Assembly: GCA_046292385.1 (NCBI GenBank)
Contig: JBKBRF010000027.1
Span: forward strand, 1-62,177
Source: Armatimonadota bacterium
GTDB lineage: Bacteria; Armatimonadota; SYMT01
Length of the DNA stretch: 62,177 bases
Reading direction: 5' to 3'
In this document: positions 1,697 to 37,770 of the stretch, one piece after another
Position numbering within the stretch: the first letter of the stretch is position 1
How the letters are laid out: every line of letters starts with the position of its first letter
The notes under the pieces: model-generated
Told to the model about the DNA's origin: nothing
Databases searched by the model: none
The model's input: the letters and a program-made list of their open reading frames with translations, nothing else
Made by a program: the position numbers and the translations under genes

Positions 1697-2860
1697 TCAC
1701 TGGGGAGCGGGAGGCAGCTGGATCTTGTCGTCCAGCCCTTCCGCCCGGAGCAGGCGGACGAGCCGCGCGCGGGCGGAGGTATCGCCGGGCGCCCTAGCGA
1801 GGCGACCGCGCAACGCGGTGATCCGGCGGTCGGTCTCTTCGCACCGCCGCAGCCACTGCGCCGCCGCGCTCGCCCGCGCCCGCTCTCCGATCTCGCGGTA
1901 GGCGCGAATCAACGCCGCGCACGCCGCGCGGTCCCGGGGTGAGACCTGCACCGCCTGCTCCAGTGGGAGGATCGCATCCCGCGACCTCCCGCTGTTCAGC
2001 AGGAAGATCCCGTGATCCCGCCAGATGTAGGCGGTCTGCTCGGTCGGGCTGTAGGGATCGAATTCCGCGCGCCGGTAGGCGGTGTCGACCTCCTCCACCG
2101 GAGCGGTGCCGAGCATCTCCAACGCCTGGGCCCGGATGAGCCACGACTCACGGTCCGCGGGATTTCGCTCTAACGATCGACGCACTGCCTCCAGCGCGGC
2201 GGCGGGCTCCCGCGCGTCGAGGTGGAGCCTCGCGAGCTCGCGCTGATACCGGAACTCCTCCGGGCCGGTCTCGACCGCCAGCTCCAGCGCGCGCCGGGCC
2301 GCCGGAAGATCCCCGTCCCGGCGGTCGAGACGGCTGAGGAGCCACCAGCAGAGCGACGACTCCGGATACCGGCGGACGGTCGCGTTGACCAGGGAGCGTG
2401 CCCCCGGGGAGCCGGCCGCCACCTCGATCTCGGCCAGGTTCTCCAGGAGCTCCTGACTCCGGTCGCCCAGCGCGTACGCCCGCTGGAAGAATGGAAGCGC
2501 CTCCCGGTCCGCGGCCGCGCCGCGGTGGAGCTTGCCGACGTGCTGGAGCAGGCGCGTGTCCCCCGGGTTGAGGCGCAGTCCCTCGAGCGCCTGCGACATC
2601 CCGTCCGACCAGTCGCCCTGGAGGTAATGGGCGCGGCTCAGGTGATAGCGGAGCCGCGGGCAGGTGGGGTCCTCCTTGAGGAGCTCCTCCAGCCGCTCGA
2701 GCGGCTGCCGGGAGAGCCACCAGTCCTGCACCGGATCGCTGCGCCAGACGAGCAGCGCGGCCACCGCGAGCGCGAGGGCCGCCAGCAGCAGTCGCGCCGG
2801 GCGTCGGTGGAGCCCCGAGCCGGTGCGAGGCTCGGGGGATGTCAGGGCAGCGTCGGGCAT
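1697..2860 (-). CDS. Membrane-anchored tetratricopeptide repeat protein
   Basis: N-terminal hydrophobic helix followed by several TPR-like A/L helical repeats ending in P. Confidence 0.8.
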   Translation of the reverse strand: MPDAALTSPEPRTGSGLHRRPARLLLAALALAVAALLVWRSDPVQDWWLSRQPLERLEELLKEDPTCPRLRYHLSRAHYLQGDWSDGMSQALEGLRLNPGDTRLLQHVGKLHRGAAADREALPFFQRAYALGDRSQELLENLAEIEVAAGSPGARSLVNATVRRYPESSLCWWLLSRLDRRDGDLPAARRALELAVETGPEEFRYQRELARLHLDAREPAAALEAVRRSLERNPADRESWLIRAQALEMLGTAPVEEVDTAYRRAEFDPYSPTEQTAYIWRDHGIFLLNSGRSRDAILPLEQAVQVSPRDRAACAALIRAYREIGERARASAAAQWLRRCEETDRRITALRGRLARAPGDTSARARLVRLLRAEGLDDKIQLPPAPQ

Positions 2861-3064
2861 CGGCGGCTCCTCAGGAGACTGTGAACGCGTTCCCGATAGA
2901 GAGTGGTATTCAGTTCCGCAGAGACGGCCGGTCTCCTACGGGAATTCTATGAATGCTGAGGTTCATATCCGTCTCTTGTGAAAGAATGCACATGATTACG
3001 AGGGAAGGTTGTCCCGGCCCCTCACCCGCCCTATGCTGAGGGAGAGAGTTCCCGGCGGAAACCG

Positions 3065-4699
3065 ATGCCGAACCTGAAGATCGTGATCCCTATCGCACTC
3101 GCGGCCGCCGTCGCCGCGTTCGCGTGGACGCGCCTCCGGCCGGAGAGTGTATCCGTCGCGCGGGTGGAGACGGGACGTGTGGTGGAGGTGGTCTACGCGA
3201 CGGGGACCGTGCGTCCGGATACCGAGACCAAGCTGGCGGCAGAGGTTACCGGACGGATCGTGGCGCTGCTGGTCGACGAGGGGGACCGGGTCGCGCTGGG
3301 GCAGGCGGTAGCCCGGCTCGACGATACGGAAGCGAAGATTCGCCTGCGCGAGGCGGAGTATCGGGTGGAGACGGCGCGCGCGCGGCTGGAGCAGGCCGGC
3401 GCGCCGACCGATCCGCTGAACGTTCGCCAGGTGGAAGCGCAGGTGCGGGCGGCCCAGGCTCGCGCGCGCGCGGCGGCGGAGCGGACCGACGGCGCGCGCC
3501 GCCGGGTCGAGACGCTGCGCGACAGCGCGCGGGCGTCGGACTCGGCGGTGGAGAGCGCCGAGGCGAAGGCCCGGGCGATGCGCAGCTCGGCCCGCGCCGC
3601 GCGGCAGGAGGTCGACGTCGCGCAGGAGCGCGTGGATGCAGCCCGGGCGGAAGCGGCGCAGGCCGCCGCCTCGGCCGCGTCCGCTCGTGACCTGGCGCAG
3701 CGCTACGGCGAGCTGCTGCGCGAGGGCGCGATCTCCGAGCGGATGACCGTAGAGGCCCGCCGGGCAGCGGAGGCGGCGGAAGCCGCGACGCGGGCGGCAC
3801 GGAACCGGGTCAGCGCGGCGGTGCAGGGAGTGGAGTCGGCGCGGGCGAGCGCCGACGCGGCGGCAGCGCAGGCCGACGACGCCGACGCCGCGGTGCGGAC
3901 CGCCCGCGCGAACGCGGAAGCGGCCCGGGCGCAGGTGAGGGAAGCGGCGGAGACGATCTCGGAGCTGCAGCGCTCCTCCGAAGCGGCCGGCGACGACCTG
4001 GCGGCGGTCCGCAGCCAGCTCGCGCAGGCCCGGCGCGGCCCGCGCTCGGTCGACGTGGAGCCGCTGCGCACCGAAGTACGCACGGCCCAGGCGGCGGCGG
4101 CGCAGGCGCGGGAAGACCTGGCGAAGTACACCGTGCTCTCTCCGGTTACGGGCGTCGTCACCGAGCGACCGGTCGATCCCGGCGACTACGTGATCTCCGG
4201 GTCCCGCCTGTTCACGGTCGCCAACGAGCAGCGGATGTTCATCGAGGCGGAGGTCGACGAAGCGGACATCGCCGGCGTCCGGCGCGGCGCGGAGGCGCGG
4301 TTCCAGGTCGACGCGATCCCCGACCGCACCTACACCGGCCACGTGACCCGCATCGCGGACGCGGCGGACCGCACCACCAAGACGTACCGGGTGGAAGTGC
4401 GCGAGCTGAGCGCGACCGACGGCCTCCGGATCGGCATGACGGCGGACGTGAACATCCAGGGACGGGTCACGGAGCGCGCGCTCCTCCTTCCGGTGGCGGC
4501 ACTGCGGTCGGAGAACGGCGTCTCAGTCGTGTGGGTGGTCGATCCGTCCGGGCGGGCGCAGCGGAGAGAGGTACGGACCCAGGCGAAAGACGCGACTTCC
4601 GTGCAGGTGCTCTCCGGTCTCAGCGCGGGGGAGCGCGTGGTCCTGAACCCGCCGGACGGCCTGGAAGCGGGAGACCGGGTGGAGGTCCGGGAGCGGTGA
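3065..4699 (+). CDS. Efflux periplasmic adaptor (MacA/HlyD-type membrane fusion protein) with a long coiled coil
   Basis: TM helix, ATGTVRP, VDEGDRVALGQ, Ala-rich coiled coil, SPVTGVV, VDEADI, GLRIGMTA, GLSAGERVV. Confidence 0.9.
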   Translation: MPNLKIVIPIALAAAVAAFAWTRLRPESVSVARVETGRVVEVVYATGTVRPDTETKLAAEVTGRIVALLVDEGDRVALGQAVARLDDTEAKIRLREAEYRVETARARLEQAGAPTDPLNVRQVEAQVRAAQARARAAAERTDGARRRVETLRDSARASDSAVESAEAKARAMRSSARAARQEVDVAQERVDAARAEAAQAAASAASARDLAQRYGELLREGAISERMTVEARRAAEAAEAATRAARNRVSAAVQGVESARASADAAAAQADDADAAVRTARANAEAARAQVREAAETISELQRSSEAAGDDLAAVRSQLAQARRGPRSVDVEPLRTEVRTAQAAAAQAREDLAKYTVLSPVTGVVTERPVDPGDYVISGSRLFTVANEQRMFIEAEVDEADIAGVRRGAEARFQVDAIPDRTYTGHVTRIADAADRTTKTYRVEVRELSATDGLRIGMTADVNIQGRVTERALLLPVAALRSENGVSVVWVVDPSGRAQRREVRTQAKDATSVQVLSGLSAGERVVLNPPDGLEAGDRVEVRER

Positions 4700-5973
4700 G
4701 CGTCGTCGTCAGCATCGCCGTGCGGTACCTGGTGGCGCGGTTCCGGCAGAGCCTGCTCACCATCGGCGGCATCGCCGTGGGCGTGCTCGCGCTCACGGTG
4801 ATCCAGGCGCTGATGGGCGGCTTCCTGCGGGACTTCGTGCAGAAGCTGCTGATCGCCACTCCGCACGTCACCGTGCGGGACCGGCCGCTGGAGCCGCGAG
4901 ACCCCTCCGCGCCGACGCGAGACGCGCTGCGCCCGCTGAACGACCCGCTGCTGGTGCAGCTTCCGCGGCCCCCGGTGCCGGACGAGGAGAAGCCGATCCG
5001 CAGCGCGGAGACAGTGCAGGAGCGAATCCGGCAGGTGCCCGGGGTGGTGGCGACCACCCCCACCGTTTCCGGGCAAGTGATGGTTGGCTTCGGCGCGGTC
5101 TGGGAGCCGGTCTCCGTCAACGGCATCCTACCCAGCCGTCAGGACCGGGTGCTCAACTTCTCCTCCTACGTAAAGGAAGGCACCGCCGAGCCGCTGGAGC
5201 GCGACCTGAGCACCGCCGTGGTCGGCTGGTACCTGGCGGACCGCATGCGCCTCAAAGTCGGAGACCGCATCGTGGTCCGATCGGAGGAAGGGGAGCCGCT
5301 CCGCTTCCGGATCGTCGGCCTCTACCGCTCGCAGGTCTACGAGGTCGACAACGCCAGCATCTGGGTCAACCTGCGCCGCGCGCAGGCGCTGCTGGGGCTG
5401 GACGGCACCGTCAACCAGATCCAGGTGCGGGTGGCGGACTACAACGCGGCGGACGAGGTGGCGCGCCGGATCGAGTACGCCGTGGGGATGGAAGCGGAGA
5501 GCTGGATGGAAGCGAACCGCAACTACCTGAACCTCTTCTCGATGTTCACCGGGATCATGCTGCTCGTGAATAGCTTCACCATGGTGGTGGCGGGCTTCGG
5601 GATCGCGGGGAACCTGATCACCACCGTGGCGGAGAAGAGCTTCGACATCGGGGTGCTGAAGGCGATGGGGCTGCAGGCGCGGCAGCTCACGCTGGTCTTT
5701 CTGCTGCTCGCCGTGATGACGATGGCGATCGGCGTGGCGATCGGACTGACCGGCGCCTACTTCTCCATCGAGGCGATCGGCAAGATCCCGAGCGCGCAGC
5801 GGGCGCAGTTCGGCGCGGTGGTGGTGACCGACACCATGCCGGTGGTGAACGACTGGACGATCTACGCCATCTCCGGCGGCTTCGCGCTCGCGGTGAGCGT
5901 GCTGGCCGGGATCTCCCCCGCGCTCCGCGCCGCGCGCCTGGAGCCGCTCACCATCATCCGGGGGGCAGGATGA
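4696..5973 (+). CDS. ABC transporter permease (MacB/FtsX/LolE family)
   Basis: GTG start overlapping the upstream TGA; MacB-type periplasmic domain, EKSFDIGVLKAMG, PALRAARLEP. Confidence 0.9.
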   Translation: MSVVVSIAVRYLVARFRQSLLTIGGIAVGVLALTVIQALMGGFLRDFVQKLLIATPHVTVRDRPLEPRDPSAPTRDALRPLNDPLLVQLPRPPVPDEEKPIRSAETVQERIRQVPGVVATTPTVSGQVMVGFGAVWEPVSVNGILPSRQDRVLNFSSYVKEGTAEPLERDLSTAVVGWYLADRMRLKVGDRIVVRSEEGEPLRFRIVGLYRSQVYEVDNASIWVNLRRAQALLGLDGTVNQIQVRVADYNAADEVARRIEYAVGMEAESWMEANRNYLNLFSMFTGIMLLVNSFTMVVAGFGIAGNLITTVAEKSFDIGVLKAMGLQARQLTLVFLLLAVMTMAIGVAIGLTGAYFSIEAIGKIPSAQRAQFGAVVVTDTMPVVNDWTIYAISGGFALAVSVLAGISPALRAARLEPLTIIRGAG

Positions 5974-8845: not shown

Positions 8846-10561
8846 TCCCTCTCCGGCCAGGAGCGTGTGCGCCCGGTCCGCGGCGAGGGCATCCCACGCC
8901 TCCCGGGAGCCGTCCGGCCACCGGACCTCTACGCGGGCCTGCCCCGCCGTGCCCAGTCCTAAGGTGAGCGGAAGCTCGCTCTGCGAGCAGTAGCTGCCGC
9001 CGCTCCGTACTTCACGGAGCTGCACGCGATCTCCGGTGCGGACGGAGACCAACGCCCCGATGGCGGAGTGATTGGGCGCGCGTCCCTTCAGCTCCAGGCG
9101 CAGCCAGTGCGGTCCGGCCGTCCCCGAACCCTTCGGGAGCAGGTCATTCCGGAGCAGGTCCGGGGAGTCGGTCCAGTGGGTGACCAGAAGGTCTACGTCG
9201 CCATCGCGGTCGTAGTCGGCGGCGACGCAGCCGCGTCCCACCTTCCGTTCGAGGGCGCCGAGACCCGCGTCGACCGGTACGAATCCGCCGCGCCCGTCGT
9301 TCAGCAGGCAGAGCGGTGGGGCCACGAGCGCCTCCCGCGTGCGCGGATCCTCCGTGGCGCTGACGTGACCGTTCGCCACGAAGAGGTCCGGAAGTCCATC
9401 CAGGTCGAGATCATCCGAGGTGAGCCCGAAGCCGACGTACGGAGAGGTCGCCTGCACCAGGCCGCTTCGGGCGCTGCGGTCCTCGAAGGTGCCGTCGCCC
9501 CGGTTGCGGTAGAGCGCCAGGTACTCGTCGCTGAAGTTGGTGACGGCCAGATCGAGGTGACCGTCACCGTCGTAATCGAGCGTCGTTATCCCCATTCCAG
9601 CCTGCGGCTGCCCGCGGTCGTCAGTCGCCACGCCGCGCTCGCGCCCCTCCTCCGTAAAGCGGCCGCGGCCGTCGTTCACGAAGAGGAAGTTCGCCGTCAT
9701 GTCGTTGGCGACGTAGAGATCCTGGTCCCCGTCCCGGTCGAAGTCGGTCCAGATCACGCCCAGGCCCCGGCCCGGGGGCACCGCCAGTCCCGATGCGCGG
9801 GTGACGTCCGTGAAGGTGCCGTCGCCGTTGTTGCGGTAGAGCAGGTCCGGCAGCGGGGGGTAGACGACCGGCCGGCAGACCGAGCGGACGCGCCTTCCGC
9901 CGGAGGGCACGTCGCAAGGGCGGTCGGTCTCCGGCGACCAGCGGACGTACCGCGCGACGTACAGATCGAGATCGCCGTCCCCGTCCGCATCGCCAAAGGC
10001 GGCGCCGGCGCTGAATCCGCCCGCCGCCACCCCGGCGCGCTCCGTCACGTCCGTAAAGCTGCCGTCGCCCTCGTTGCGGTAGAGGCGGTTGCCGTCGAGA
10101 GTAGTCACATAGACGTCGAGCCGGCCGTCGCCGTCGAAGTCCCCCGCGCAGCAGCCGATGGCGTACCCGGGGCGCCCGAGGCCGGAGCGCGCCGTCTCGT
10201 CCACGAAGGTGCCGTCGCCGGTATTTCGAAAGTAGCGGCTCTCGAACGGCTCGGCATCTCTCGAGAGTGGGGCGCCGTTCAGCAGGTAGACGTCCGCCAG
10301 GCCGTCGCCCGACAGGTCGGCGAAGAGGCTGCCGCCGCCCATCACCTCCGGCAGGAAGAGCCTACCGGTGCCGCCGTCCTGGTGCCGGAACTCGACCTTC
10401 GCGGCGGAAGTGACCGCAGAGAGCCGCAGCGCCGGCGCACCGCTCGAATCCATGGGCCGGTCGCAGCCAGCGCCCAGGAGCAGGAGCGATCCGGCGAGTG
10501 CGGCCGCGCACCTAGCCCGGGGAGCGAGCAGTCCGATAGTAAAGCGACCATAGATGGCCAT
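8828..10561 (-). CDS. CRTAC1-family lipoprotein (FG-GAP/VCBS repeats + ASPIC/UnbV domain)
   Basis: LGAGC lipobox, repeated DxDGDGxLDL motifs, SGGSYCSQS...GLG...VRWPDG C-terminus. Confidence 0.9.
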   Translation of the reverse strand: MAIYGRFTIGLLAPRARCAAALAGSLLLLGAGCDRPMDSSGAPALRLSAVTSAAKVEFRHQDGGTGRLFLPEVMGGGSLFADLSGDGLADVYLLNGAPLSRDAEPFESRYFRNTGDGTFVDETARSGLGRPGYAIGCCAGDFDGDGRLDVYVTTLDGNRLYRNEGDGSFTDVTERAGVAAGGFSAGAAFGDADGDGDLDLYVARYVRWSPETDRPCDVPSGGRRVRSVCRPVVYPPLPDLLYRNNGDGTFTDVTRASGLAVPPGRGLGVIWTDFDRDGDQDLYVANDMTANFLFVNDGRGRFTEEGRERGVATDDRGQPQAGMGITTLDYDGDGHLDLAVTNFSDEYLALYRNRGDGTFEDRSARSGLVQATSPYVGFGLTSDDLDLDGLPDLFVANGHVSATEDPRTREALVAPPLCLLNDGRGGFVPVDAGLGALERKVGRGCVAADYDRDGDVDLLVTHWTDSPDLLRNDLLPKGSGTAGPHWLRLELKGRAPNHSAIGALVSVRTGDRVQLREVRSGGSYCSQSELPLTLGLGTAGQARVEVRWPDGSREAWDALAADRAHTLLAGEGSAAGR

Positions 10562-10684
10562 TAGTAATTACTTAGAAGGTTGGAGCAGGAGAACGGCAAA
10601 TCTTAATACGAGTTAATCACTGAGGTATCGGCCTGATCCCTCCCGCATCGGCGCGGAGGTGGAGGCAGCAAAGGAGCAACGTCG

Positions 10685-11464
10685 ATGATGAGAAGTCATC
10701 GGATCAAAGGCTTCACCCTGATTGAGCTGCTGGTGGTCATCGCCATCATCGCAATTCTGGCGGCGATCCTGTTCCCCGTCTTCGCTCAAGCTCGCGAAGC
10801 CGCTCGGAAAGCCTCTTGCTCGAGCAACCTGCGCCAGCTCGGCATGGGCATCGCGATGTATCACCAGGACTACGACGAAAGGTATCCGTTCTGGGCGTGG
10901 GGCAACAACTACGGGGGCGCCGGCAACATGCAGAGCCTGTGGCACGTCGCCATCTTTCCGTACGTGAAGAACCGGGGCATCTACGCCTGCCCCAGCGACG
11001 CGCAGAACTGGGGGCAGTCCACCACCGATCTCTACTGGTGGGGCATCCCCAAGGCTGACCGCCTGCGGGACTCGCCGCAGTTCGAGTCGCTCCTCGGCAG
11101 CGGCAGCGGCGGTCGCGATGAGATCGTCCTCAGCTACGGCATCGGCGAGACGTTCCACAACGCCGGCTGGGGCGAGTCCGCGCTTCCGGCGCCGGCTAGC
11201 ACCGCAGTGCTCTCCGAGGCTCCCTGCCTCCTGGGCGACCTGTGGGGCATCGACAACCGGCCGAACGCCCGCATCGCCATGCGCTTCGCGGCATCCAAGA
11301 CGGCGGCTGCTCCGTGGGGCACGGACCAGGTGTTCCAGTGGAATCCCGCCTGGGACAACAACACCCGGCACGGGGGCGGTCTCAACGTCGTCTACGCCGA
11401 CGGCCACGTCAAGTGGATCAAGGCGGACAAGATGCGTGAGAACATCACGCGGCCGGACTTCTAA
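10685..11464 (+). CDS. DUF1559 protein with prepilin-type N-terminal cleavage/methylation motif and H-X9-DG C-terminal motif
   Basis: [31 protein letters not shown]...[25 protein letters not shown]. Confidence 0.95.
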
Positions 11465-29680: not shown

Positions 29681-29738
29681 CTATGGATGTGAAGCTTCCC
29701 TTCTCCCGGGTTCGGGGAGGCGCACAGCCTTCGCGGGT

Positions 29739-34516: not shown

Positions 34517-34686
34517 CGCTTGCCCCTTCCGCGCTCAAACTGTCACTCGGTCTTCCGGCCGCCGACTGAGGTACCGGGAGCCTCGGAGCAGCGGGAGACG
34601 CATTCCCATTCACCCTTCTCGCGGGCCAACCCTGCGGAGGCGTAAGAGGTGACGAATTGGGGGTAATTCGTGCCGAGGAGAGAGAT

Positions 34687-36726
34687 ATGGCGAAAGTCGC
34701 GACGGCGATCCGACCGATCAAAGAGCTGTTCCCGTTTCCGCTGGATGAGTTCCAGCTCGACGCGATCGCCCGGATCGACGAGGGGCACAGCGTGCTGGTC
34801 TGCGCGCCCACCGGCTCCGGAAAGACGGTAATCGCCGAGTACGCGGTGCATCGAGCCCTGTCGGCGGGCAAGCGGCTCTTTTACACCACGCCGCTCAAGG
34901 CGCTCTCCAACCAGAAGTTCCGCGACCTGGGCGCGGCCCTGGGCGAGCACCGGGTGGGTCTGCTGACCGGCGACGTGAGCCTCAACCGGGACGCCGACGT
35001 GGTGGTGATGACCACGGAGGTCTTCCGGAACATGCTCTACGGCACCACCCTCGGGGCCGTGGAGACGAACCTGCGCGACGTCGACTTCGTGGTGCTGGAC
35101 GAGGTCCATTACATGAACGACGCCCAGCGGGGGACCGTCTGGGAAGAATCGATCATCTACTGCCCGCCGCAGGTGCAGCTGGTGGCGCTCTCCGCCACGG
35201 TCGCGAACGCGGTCGACATGGCGGCCTGGATGAACAAGGTCCACGGCGATACCACGCTGATCCTGAGCGATTACCGCCCCGTCCCGCTCCGCTTCCACTA
35301 CTACGACGGGCGCAATATGCGGTCGCTGCTCCGCCGGCAGCCGCGCACCGGCGACTTCAAGTCTCGGATCGACACCGATACGAGCCGCCGGCTGCGGCCG
35401 TGGGAGATGCAGGTCGATCCCTACGGCCTGGTGGAGGCGCTGGACGATCGGGAGATGCTCCCCGCGATCTACTTCGTCTTCAGCCGGAAAGGGTGCGACC
35501 AGGCGATGCACACCTGCGGGCACCTGCAGCTCCTCTCGGAAGAGGAGCAGGCGGAGGTGGAGCGATTCGTGGAGCGGTACGTGCGCGACTACCCCTCCGT
35601 GGCAGACCACGAGCACCTGCCGTATCTCTTCCGCGGCGTGGCGGCGCACCACGCGGGGCTGCTGCCGACCTGGAAGGTGCTGGTGGAGCGGCTCTTCCAG
35701 AAGGGGCTGATCAAGGTCGTCTTCGCCACCGAGACGCTGGCCGCCGGGATCAACATGCCGGCACGCAGTACGGTGCTCTCCAGCATCACCAAGCGGACCG
35801 ACGACGGCCATCGCACGCTCACCGCGAGCGAGTTCCTGCAGATGTCCGGCCGCGCCGGGCGGCGAGGGATGGATCCGGTGGGCCACGTGGTGATCGCGGC
35901 GAACCCGCGTCAGACGATGTCCGAGGCGCAGATGCTCGCCACGGCGCCGCCGGATCCGCTCGGCAGCCATTTCACGCCCACCTACGGGATGGTGTTGAAC
36001 CTGCTGCAGCGGCACACCCTGGAGGAGTGCGGCTTCCTGGTGTCCCGCAGCTTCGGGCAGTTCCTCGACGACGTGCGCCGCGCCAAGCGTCCCGCTCGCC
36101 GCCGGCAGCGGCCGGAGCGCCGCCGCGCGAGCCGAGAGGAGGGGGAGGCGCCCTCCGGCAACTGGCGCCGCTTCCTGGCGCTGAAAGACGTGCTGGAAGA
36201 CTTCGGCTACGTGGAGCACAACCACCCCACGCCCCCCGGCGTGACCGCCGCCTCGCTCCGCGCGGAGCACGAGCTGCTGGTGGCCGAGGCGCTCCTCTCC
36301 GGCGCGATGAACGCGCTCGAGCCGTCCGAGTTCGCCGGCGTGGTAACGGCGCTGGTGGGGGAGGAGCTGCGGCGGAACGCCTGGGTGAAGCTGCGCCCCA
36401 CCGGCGGTGCCGCGCGGTCGCTCCATCACCTGGTCCGCCTGGCGCGGCAGGTGCGCACCGTCCAGTGGCGGCACGGGCTGGAGCTGGAGACCCGCATCCA
36501 CGCCGACGCCACCGGCCTCACGCAGCTCTGGGCCTCCGAGAAGGAGTGGGAGCACGTGATGGAGTTCACCAACCTGGACGAGGGGGACGTGGTCCGGATC
36601 TTCCGGCGGACCGTCGACCTGCTGGAGCAGATCTACCACGCGCCGATGCTGGACGAGGACCTCCGCAAGGTGGCGCTGGAAGCGAAGCGCGTGATGGACC
36701 GGGAGCCGGTGAAGGAAGTGCTCTGA
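34687..36726 (+). CDS. helY: Ski2-like DEAD/DEAH RNA helicase with DSHCT domain (HelY-like)
   Basis: APTGSGKT, PLKALSNQK, DEVHY, LSATV, TETLAAGINMPA, QMSGRAGRRGMD, EGDVVR..RR..DLL.QI. Confidence 0.88.
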   Translation: MAKVATAIRPIKELFPFPLDEFQLDAIARIDEGHSVLVCAPTGSGKTVIAEYAVHRALSAGKRLFYTTPLKALSNQKFRDLGAALGEHRVGLLTGDVSLNRDADVVVMTTEVFRNMLYGTTLGAVETNLRDVDFVVLDEVHYMNDAQRGTVWEESIIYCPPQVQLVALSATVANAVDMAAWMNKVHGDTTLILSDYRPVPLRFHYYDGRNMRSLLRRQPRTGDFKSRIDTDTSRRLRPWEMQVDPYGLVEALDDREMLPAIYFVFSRKGCDQAMHTCGHLQLLSEEEQAEVERFVERYVRDYPSVADHEHLPYLFRGVAAHHAGLLPTWKVLVERLFQKGLIKVVFATETLAAGINMPARSTVLSSITKRTDDGHRTLTASEFLQMSGRAGRRGMDPVGHVVIAANPRQTMSEAQMLATAPPDPLGSHFTPTYGMVLNLLQRHTLEECGFLVSRSFGQFLDDVRRAKRPARRRQRPERRRASREEGEAPSGNWRRFLALKDVLEDFGYVEHNHPTPPGVTAASLRAEHELLVAEALLSGAMNALEPSEFAGVVTALVGEELRRNAWVKLRPTGGAARSLHHLVRLARQVRTVQWRHGLELETRIHADATGLTQLWASEKEWEHVMEFTNLDEGDVVRIFRRTVDLLEQIYHAPMLDEDLRKVALEAKRVMDREPVKEVL

Positions 36727-36794
36727 CGGGCTGTTTTCTCCGACACAGAGGGACACAGAAGAACCAACAGAGTAACACAGCAGTGGCTAGGAAG

Positions 36795-37113
36795 CTGGGG
36801 TTCGCCACTCGTGGACATACCGCGCAGATGCGCACTCGGGAGCGCGTCCTGTGGAACCCGGAGGCTCCGCCAAAGGCGGAGGTGGAGGGGTTCGCCTGTG
36901 AGGTCCCCTGGCGAGGGGGCCTCGCTTGAGCCGGACGGAGCGGCCCGTGAACCGCAGTACTGAGGCTGCCGCCGCACCAGATCGCGGGGCTCAGCCTGCC
37001 GGCTCGCACGCCCGGAGCAGTCCGCTAGCCCGCAGGGCGTGAAAGGACTGCGGGAGGGCCAAACACGCGGGAGGGCCGCTCCGGCAGGTTAGGGCCGGGG
37101 GGTGGAACCCCGG
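36795..37113 (+). ncRNA. Candidate large structured noncoding RNA of unassigned family (strand tentative)
   Basis: 600-bp gene-free gap containing a long-range closing helix (36795-36810 / 37100-37113) that encloses at least 6 nested helices, including a perfect 11-bp 36936-36946 / 37073-37083. Confidence 0.55.
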
Positions 37114-37213
37114 AAAGATGACGGCGACGCCAAGAGTCTCTCCTGCGACCAACTGCGGTTGACTCTCTGCAACGCTGTGCCCGTTGGCGTTCGGAAGCAA
37201 AAAGGAGTCCGAG

Positions 37214-37241
37214 GGAACCTTACTGAGAAGAGAGGGTCTAA
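37214..37241 (+). promoter_or_regulatory. ECF (sigmaE-type) promoter GGAACCT-N16-TCTAA
   Basis: Close match to the RpoE-type consensus, upstream of a Spy/CpxP-like gene. Confidence 0.65.
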
Positions 37242-37326
37242 CCACCCGGCCGCCCGCGATACTGAACCTGTGGGCGCGTCCCCCCGTCATGACGCTCAGA
37301 ACCCCCTTTGAAAGGAGTCTTCCCTC

Positions 37327-37770
37327 ATGAATCGCTGGATGACGACCCTGGCCGCCGGTGCGCTGGCCCTTAGCTTTACGGGCTCCGCGCTGGCCCAGGC
37401 CCCCGCCAAGCCGGCGCAGAAGCCCGCCGCGCAGGACGGTCAGCGCGCCCAGCGCGGCCAGCGCGGCCAGGCCCGCCTGAAGGCCGCTCTGGACAAGCTC
37501 GGGCTGACCGCGGACCAGAAGACGAAGGTCGACGCGCTGATGAAGAACCAGGCCGCGGAGATGAAGAAGCTCCGGGAAGCGCCGGGCACTCCGCAGGAGA
37601 AGCGCCCGAAGATGCGCGAGGCTGCCAAGCAGTTCCGCTCCAAGCTGGAAGCGATCCTGACTGCGGAGCAGAAGACGAAGCTGCGCGAGATGCAGCGCGA
37701 GGCGCGCCGCAACCGCCAGAACGGCGGCGCGCGCACCACGCCCGCCAAGCCGGCCGCCCCGAAGGCGTAA
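37327..37770 (+). CDS. Spy/CpxP-like periplasmic protein (LTxxQ motifs)
   Basis: AAAGGAG RBS, signal peptide ALAQA, LGLTADQK and ILTAEQK motifs. Confidence 0.8.
   Translation: MNRWMTTLAAGALALSFTGSALAQAPAKPAQKPAAQDGQRAQRGQRGQARLKAALDKLGLTADQKTKVDALMKNQAAEMKKLREAPGTPQEKRPKMREAAKQFRSKLEAILTAEQKTKLREMQREARRNRQNGGARTTPAKPAAPKA

Follow-up and report, generated by a model that had tools for sequence, protein, structure and literature searches.

The single-strand DNA signals known for gene-less repeats are short hairpins, and the spread of such repeats is only partly understood. Alongside them stand gene-less, PATE-like derivatives of IS200/IS605. REPs, which with their BIME and REPIN arrangements are mobilised by RAYTs (TnpA-REP, Y1 HUH enzymes), are hairpins of 20–50 nt preceded by a tetranucleotide, mostly GTAG (PMC3116915, PMC8266576, PMC6006769), and the IS91-family miniatures of IS801 are gene-less fragments of 229–679 nt that are moved in trans (PMC3189936). 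A real, uncatalogued structured mobile repeat from an Armatimonadota bacterium is described here, which is ten times larger than those hairpins, shows covariation as strong as that in structured RNAs, and has defined ends and a target word.

The window, a stretch of 62,177 nucleotides (contig JBKBRF010000027.1 of assembly GCA_046292385.1), contains a 600-bp gap (36727–37326) between a HelY/Ski2-like helicase gene and an LTXXQ-like gene (Table 1). BLAST of this gap against its own genome returned 116 matches; an nhmmer profile returned 153, of which 135 cover at least half of the model, and none in the reversed genome; and a covariance model found 141 copies. The window copy, which aligned with five 400-bp copies, scored 213 bits with nhmmer and 170 bits with the covariance model, and its left end is blurred and decayed, the start given being approximate. 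That the region is a mobile repeat is very probable. A sequence-only reading of the region had treated it as a single locus and missed its multicopy nature; a single, 6S/Ms1-like ncRNA gene is not supported, as some 140 copies adjoin unrelated genes in both orientations. The same reading's conserved but unassigned structure stood, in that one strand folds, covariation is strong and no Rfam family matches; its status as a single helicase-linked ncRNA gene fell.

Table 1. Features of the helY locus and of the window copy (positions in the window).
Feature	Position	Strand	Remarks
HelY/Ski2-like helicase gene (DEAD, Helicase_C, DSHCT)	34657..36726	+	neighbour
ACAG-rich short repeat	36736..36780	+	separate from the element
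Window copy of the mobile element	36815..37178	+	solo copy of type A, diverged; akin to the 400-bp form
Structured core (arm)	36850..37125	+	~280 nt, common to all copies
P1, bulged hairpin with GGA internal loops	36854..36893	+	loop AAA here, mostly GNA in other copies
P2, near-perfect covarying hairpin	36900..36923	+	in other copies its loop takes insertions of other elements
P3/P4, long-range closing stem	36923..37097	+	36923-36927 with 37092-37097, then 36931-36946 with 37073-37088
V1, variable sequence of fixed length	36951..36982	+	32 nt in 53/56 type-A copies
V2, variable segment of fixed length	36988..37010	+	23 nt in 51/52 type-A copies
P5/P6, stem with GNA/GGA internal loop and C(GNA)G-capped hairpin	37010..37059	+	loop GCA at 37032-37034
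V3, variable linker	37060..37065	+	6 nt in 51/51 type-A copies
Probable right end of the window copy	37173..37179	+	CGCTGT then G, as in the young subfamily; placed by alignment
ECF-type promoter-like motif	37214..37241	+	GGAACC then GTCTAA
LTXXQ-like protein gene	37327..37770	+	neighbour; below Pfam cut-off; syntenic with helY in 5/6 relatives

Orthologues of helY are present in all six family relatives, and none of the six carries the element at this locus. Five keep the LTXXQ-like gene downstream, across gaps of roughly 50–240 bp as judged by eye, which points to the helY site in the relatives as a putative empty site. In G005, whose own copies lie elsewhere, another short repeat occupies this position. 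An ncRNA serving as substrate or partner of the adjacent helicase, as had been suggested, would fit a well-folding + strand lying next to the helicase gene on the same strand, but the copies elsewhere, the six helY orthologues without the element, and the lack of a neighbour family common to the copies beyond large metabolic families leave this explanation with a negligible likelihood. Strong covariation beside an RNA helicase need not, then, signal an RNA gene. The earlier view that the region is not the leader of the next gene was supported; a motif similar to the ECF-like one can be made out by eye in four of the five syntenic relatives without the element. About 20 stretches similar to the ACAG-rich repeat 5' of the element were found genome-wide by BLAST against the own genome; such repeats flank many insertions of the element, and the target word is contained in them. 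Near 29700 of the window, translations of ORFs hint at one more repeat, short and palindromic. In one soil DNA run, a contig links the helY end to the next gene over 571 bases, with unknown letters between, and the contigs of one RNA run, which had little cover, do not cover the element; neither was counted as evidence.

The covariance model found 17 (G005), 8 and 3 copies in three of the six family relatives (G004–G006), and none in the other three nor in one further genome of the order (G001–G003 and G007, these four being 69–95% complete). With this genome (G000) included, four of eight genomes of the class have matches, and copy number ranges from 0 to 141 among family members. A phylum-wide model search, with 15 candidates scored per genome, matched at least four of 151 genomes. 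Twelve metagenome loci were retrieved with a specific pattern, 11 of them confirmed by the covariance model, and one of nine viral loci was confirmed by the model (one viral contig); a looser pattern applied to genome contigs gave, among the matches listed, no profile-confirmed locus (0/72, and 0/1 viral), and BLAST gave no match in plasmid and phage collections. A tree of 44 rows, 21 of which represent copies in this genome, sorts the copies largely by genome, with rough support. The element has expanded separately in different lineages, and an ancient split of its two arm types, A and B, across genera is not supported by this grouping. The metagenome copies L210 and L212 lie near genes 79–84% identical to copy-flanking genes at G000:C32 10639 and C10 70909, in a different position, and from these neighbours some sites may be old and shared.

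Within this genome the copies are intergenic: none of 135 overlaps a gene by more than half, as judged with a crude gene caller. Solo copies show no bias in orientation to the upstream gene (36 vs 33), sites are somewhat enriched between convergent genes (29/102 vs 830/5542), and GC skew is too weak to orient contigs with respect to the strand of replication. Copies also cluster locally, with 11 sites on C8 against 2.4 expected and eight on C40 against 0.9 expected. From 13.6 to 40.0 kb of G000:C40, eight co-oriented copies interleave with and flank a phage-like cluster (terminase, portal and capsid, named by eye), on the strand opposite to the genes and at a spacing of 1.4–6 kb. A single copy lies opposite phage-like genes at L137 1218–1449 (G006), and the viral contig L226 has a copy beside terminase genes (2853–3074).

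Several other arrangements were observed in the relatives. In G005:C3 (L138), four copies (4643–4879, 5428–5661, 10321–10540 and 10677–10896) sit at the trailer ends of two type I-E-like CRISPR arrays around cas1, flanked there by degenerate repeats; the head of each copy abuts a repeat, and one junction is a perfect 26-bp inverted duplication across the repeat. In G006:C47 (L136/L117), three complete copies and two partial ones follow one another in tandem with a period of ~430 bp, and G004 (L178) has duplicated tails. In G005, genes for DUF4268, AbiJ-N and GIY-YIG proteins lie between two co-oriented copies (L140 4211–7637), and at L142 and L139 copies flank a methyltransferase and an MmeI-type enzyme, which are defence-like; a trend of copies beside defence-like genes was not seen in G000.

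The copies in this genome comprise 58 of type A and 77 of type B. Neighbouring copies within 400 bp are arranged head-to-head in 33 cases, a few of these pairs being partial or overlapping, and tail-to-tail and same-strand in one case each; by chance, ~2 gaps would be doubly occupied. Fixed ends were defined for the young subfamily of this genome, in which 20 of 25 left-end matches have a right end within 1.5 kb. Ten of these two-ended copies measure 789–821 bp, six 400–416 bp and four 548–888 bp. The 789–821-bp form consists of a reversed B arm, a spacer of ~59 nt and an A arm; in the 400–416-bp form, the left end is joined to arm A, making it a deletion form. The left junction reads T or C, then CTGT, in 14/20 copies, and the right junction has CTGT in 16/20 followed by G in 20/20, figures that are biased upward since the end-search motifs included CTGT and the final G. 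The left and right 4-mers are identical in only 10/20, and terminal inverted repeats were found in none of the 20. As to the classical features of a DDE-mobilised MITE, terminal inverted repeats and a target duplication, inverted ends are absent, and the shared 4-mer could formally be a duplication. When the flanks were joined with one CTGT, three of the 20 reconstructed empty sites could be aligned over the junction to intact copies of other repeats elsewhere (19, 8 and 6 matches), two of them in ACAG-rich repeats and gap-free, the third with one gap; the other 17 had no spanning match, as expected for unique DNA, and are uninformative. The youngest subfamily has fixed ends, lacks terminal inverted repeats and moves as one unit into (C/T)CTGT^G sites.

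The loop of P2 attracts insertions. L214 530–2458 contains a Tn5-like IS flanked by an arm on each side, a similar IS end is present in L213, the P2 loop at 35.0–35.6 kb of G000:C40 has received a small element that is bounded by inverted ends and accompanied by a duplication of 8 bp, and P2-loop insertions are also seen at several contig ends. The Tn5-like transposase of L214, which lies between outward-facing arms, was considered as an autonomous parent and rejected: it has 17-bp inverted ends of its own, arms are present in 0/30 of its relatives, and this query did not detect it in G000 or G005. It is read as an IS inserted into P2.

The fold was examined by checking the helices proposed earlier, all of which can be read in the window, on 47 other type-A copies. 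Compared with shuffles, the + strand has the better fold (z -3.33, with 0/100 as good); for the - strand this is not so (z -1.21). Several of the proposed helices survive comparison: in P1, the outer gaaccc/gggttc is paired in 76% and the inner ctccgcc/ggcggag in 89%; the P2 hairpin gaggtcccc/ggggcctc is 96% paired, with 4/10 pairs covarying; the 11-bp helix 36936–36946/37073–37083 is paired in 515/517 cells; and gcagtcc/ggactgc is 89% paired. Others do not. The outer helix thought to close the region is paired in 30% (nine pairs tested, 36795–36803/37105–37113), gcgc-agat-gcgc in 36% and aggctg/cagcct in 44%, and the 11-mer gcgggagggcc, noted as doubled, is present twice in only 9/48 copies. 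The supposed switch pairing ccgcagt/actgcgg is 73% paired with 0/7 pairs covarying, and the possible pseudoknot cacgccc/gggcgtg is 87% paired in type A, yet also has no covarying pair among seven; one of its pairs is kept in only 10/75 type-B copies because that base covaries with another partner. The true closure of the fold is the pair 36923–37097, missed by the sequence-only reading, which is Watson-Crick in 48/48 copies (29 C-G, 19 T-A). The long closing helix has 16 pairs, 12 of them covarying, and a tandem G.A step between the two P3/P4 segments is possible.

Over the whole structure, 24 of 45 pairs change on both sides among 21 copies from two genomes, a value reached by 0/500 shuffles, although the structure was derived from the same 21 sequences, which favours this result. 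Slid controls are 35–53% paired against 92.7% for the structure, and in the type-A helix test G.T is more frequent than A.C by only 38 to 18. The unpaired motifs between V1, V2 and V3 are nearly invariant (119–132 of 133 copies). In ten full young copies, identity is 68–77% in V1/V2, 73% in the spacer and 85–95% in the cores; V1 and V2 thus match the spacer in variability and exceed the cores, and therefore look unconstrained in sequence and fixed in length. A coding origin of the arms was rejected, as P6 length variants differ by 8 nt and V1 has stops in all six frames, as was a G-quadruplex reading of the G-runs, considered by eye, the runs being broken in many copies.

Old copies retain strong structural conservation at a mean pairwise identity of ~76%. 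This would suit a domesticated chromosomal single-strand signal, such as a priming/single-strand initiation or protein-loading site, which benefits the host and spreads secondarily, as would the co-oriented run in and around the phage-like cluster of C40; structured motifs of 223–349 nt may act as ssDNA in replication, according to Weinberg et al. (PMC5737381). Such a signal is nevertheless quite improbable, given a copy number that falls to zero among family members, young copies that insert with precise ends, a co-orientation that is gone without C40 (8 vs 8), and the absence of matches in the plasmid and phage collections.

Whether the arm acts as DNA or RNA was approached through its loops. 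GNA triloops in 133 copies number 260 on the sense strand and 23 on the antisense strand, against 54.5 in matched random segments, whereas GNRA loops (31 vs 23 background) and UNCG loops (6 vs 19) are not enriched; GNA loops were found in 0/60 terminator-like hairpins. The GNA excess is smaller in 25 foreign copies (17 sense vs 2 antisense; nine GNRA). The GGA/GNA internal loops of the element can also be read as DNA zippers. In DNA, GNA triloops have been described as stable and as closed by sheared G.A pairing, and steps of the form pyrimidine-GA-purine as sheared pairs in tandem (PMC10085684). The excess on one strand, together with its absence from terminators, therefore favours single-stranded DNA, and the fold rather likely forms in this state. 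By folding energy, DNA and RNA are not told apart (mean z of -3.20 and -3.67, respectively, in 16 copies), and Weinberg et al. likewise note that ssDNA and ssRNA motifs are hard to distinguish computationally (PMC5737381).

The chief competing explanation is that the arm works as RNA, as the scaffold or guide of a mobile element (bridge-RNA-like or omega-RNA-like), with CTGT as the recombination core of an IS110-type or serine/tyrosine recombinase and the variable segments as guides. A multi-helix fold of such size with G.U pairs is typical of RNA, the RNA z-scores are as good as the DNA ones, IS110-type recombination uses a short shared core without inverted repeats, and this genome has two IS110 genes. 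We nonetheless regard this as rather unlikely. The longest match of V1/V2 to their own flanks is 6.9–7.2, against 6.9–7.0 for the flanks of other copies (n=61), the loops typical of RNA are not enriched in this genome's copies, and orientation shows no preference with respect to transcription. No IS110 match was found in G005 despite its 17 copies, and 0/3 IS110 loci have a copy within 1.5 kb. There was also no match to the reverse transcriptase family RVT_1 (control positive in 3/14), to IscB-type RRXRR (control silent) or to a TnpB zinc ribbon. Rfam 15 at the gathering threshold gave no match in the whole window, only sub-threshold matches appearing at E<=10, and none for 12 further loci; the families covered include 6S, Ms1, RNase P, tmRNA, SRP, HEARO, riboswitches and ribozymes. 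This agrees with the earlier failure to match the region to RNase P, tmRNA, SRP or a riboswitch, and a tmRNA is present elsewhere in the genome.

No enzyme that moves the element was found in searches that covered several further families. A copy within 1.5 kb was found at 0/26 Y1 loci in six genomes, whose assemblies are fragmented, and the five Y1 genes of this genome lie amid repeats of other kinds. The figure is 0/30 for Tn5-like loci and 1/24 for GIY-YIG loci, and the protein at this one locus is not matched in this genome. Both small GIY-YIG genes of the genome are flanked by another repeat, into which the element is inserted once. A Y2 transposase was not matched in five genomes, a weak result as the control was silent, and 18 tyrosine recombinases were listed in the enzyme search. 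No transposase was seen by eye among the flanking proteins (first 62 residues, with C8 and C40 viewed in part). In the search for an autonomous parent with the same ends, end segments were found only at arms or, close to where contigs stop, in truncated copies. With 91 contigs in the assembly and several breaks inside repeats nested in the element, the parent could be missing. At G000:C40 62236, on the contig with eight copies, the 9-mer that opens the left end lies ~24 bases upstream of a Y1 gene, which may be chance, as 10 of 24 genome-wide matches of this 9-mer are not ends. Other sets of repeat plus enzyme are present in G000, with Y1 genes on C51, C22, C40, C83 and C5, small GIY-YIG genes on C56 and C43, and IS110 on C6 and C91, both IS110 copies sitting inside such repeats.

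The reading preferred here, which we put slightly above an even chance, is an oversized counterpart of a REPIN, a gene-less, non-autonomous element that an enzyme acting on single-stranded DNA would move in trans. The arm would fold on single-stranded DNA at a replication fork, in a transcription bubble or on an excised circle, where a host enzyme whose gene lies elsewhere would bind it, nick after CTGT and join the strand to a CTGT^G target; an HUH nuclease (Y1-type), or an enzyme with the same function, is the most likely candidate. This enzymatic step is modelled on REPINs and RAYTs (PMC3116915, PMC8266576, PMC6006769) and on IS801 miniatures (PMC3189936), and that the enzyme is of HUH type is by this analogy conceivable, if short of an even chance. 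Head-to-head doublets would, as REPINs do, provide each strand with one folded arm; V1, V2 and V3 would act as spacers between recognised motifs; and internal deletions that keep both ends (400–640 bp) would stay mobile. A bolder and improbable proposal is a new class, in which the ~230-nt core is a tertiary-folded ssDNA module that directs or catalyses its own nicking and joining at CTGT, built from GNA triloops, GGA zippers, tandem G.A steps and ruler-like spacers; on that equally improbable construction, a host enzyme, so far unrecognised, would be optional. The element is a concrete substrate for pull-down and for a nicking assay, through which a new enzyme of single-stranded DNA, or a complex DNA fold of natural origin, might come to light; if RNA, it would be an uncatalogued mobile structured RNA.

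No published description of the element was found, the supplementary motif lists of PMC5737381 and PMC11109978 and most subscription journals lying outside the scope of this search. With mobile/repeat sequence candidates (MRSC) and the ssDNA-candidate motifs ARRPOF, GEBRO, PAGEV and DUF1874 (PMC11109978, PMC5737381), the element shares a covarying multicopy motif in inconsistent orientation, and the question of RNA versus ssDNA; MRSC-65-2, unlike the element, is a single long stem found in many phyla. The SRM repeats of Ssn nucleases are hairpins read as single-stranded DNA (PMC11893778), and this genome too has two small GIY-YIG genes, but SRMs are 20–50 nt long and flank their own gene, whereas the small GIY-YIG genes here are flanked by another repeat.

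Gene-less IS200/IS605 derivatives resemble the element in a single-strand route, insertion beside a short word and subterminal structure (PMC8266576, PMC6006769), and differ from it in that here two homologous arms lie on opposite strands, far from the ends, and no parent IS or guide tetranucleotide was found. IS801 miniatures (PMC3189936) also lack proper terminal inverted repeats, have a conserved junction tetranucleotide and are gene-less fragments moved in trans; the short forms here, however, keep both ends as internal deletions, while those of IS801 are one-ended, and no match to the Y2 transposase of IS91 accompanies them in the five genomes searched with a silent control. Compared with REPINs, the arm of ~280 nt is a multi-helix fold closed by a long-range stem, not a palindrome of 20–50 nt with GTAG or GGAG at its foot, and belongs to a unit of ~800 bp with fixed ends; no RAYT flanked by the element was found (0/26 Y1 loci). 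On size, tetranucleotide and cognate gene, the element is therefore not filed as a REPIN. It nonetheless shares with REP, BIME and REPIN sequences a gene-less, intergenic, high-copy and lineage-restricted nature, and, like them, it occurs as inverted doublets with a variable linker, as singlets and in tandem clusters, and is read as a folded single strand (PMC3116915, PMC8266576, PMC6006769).
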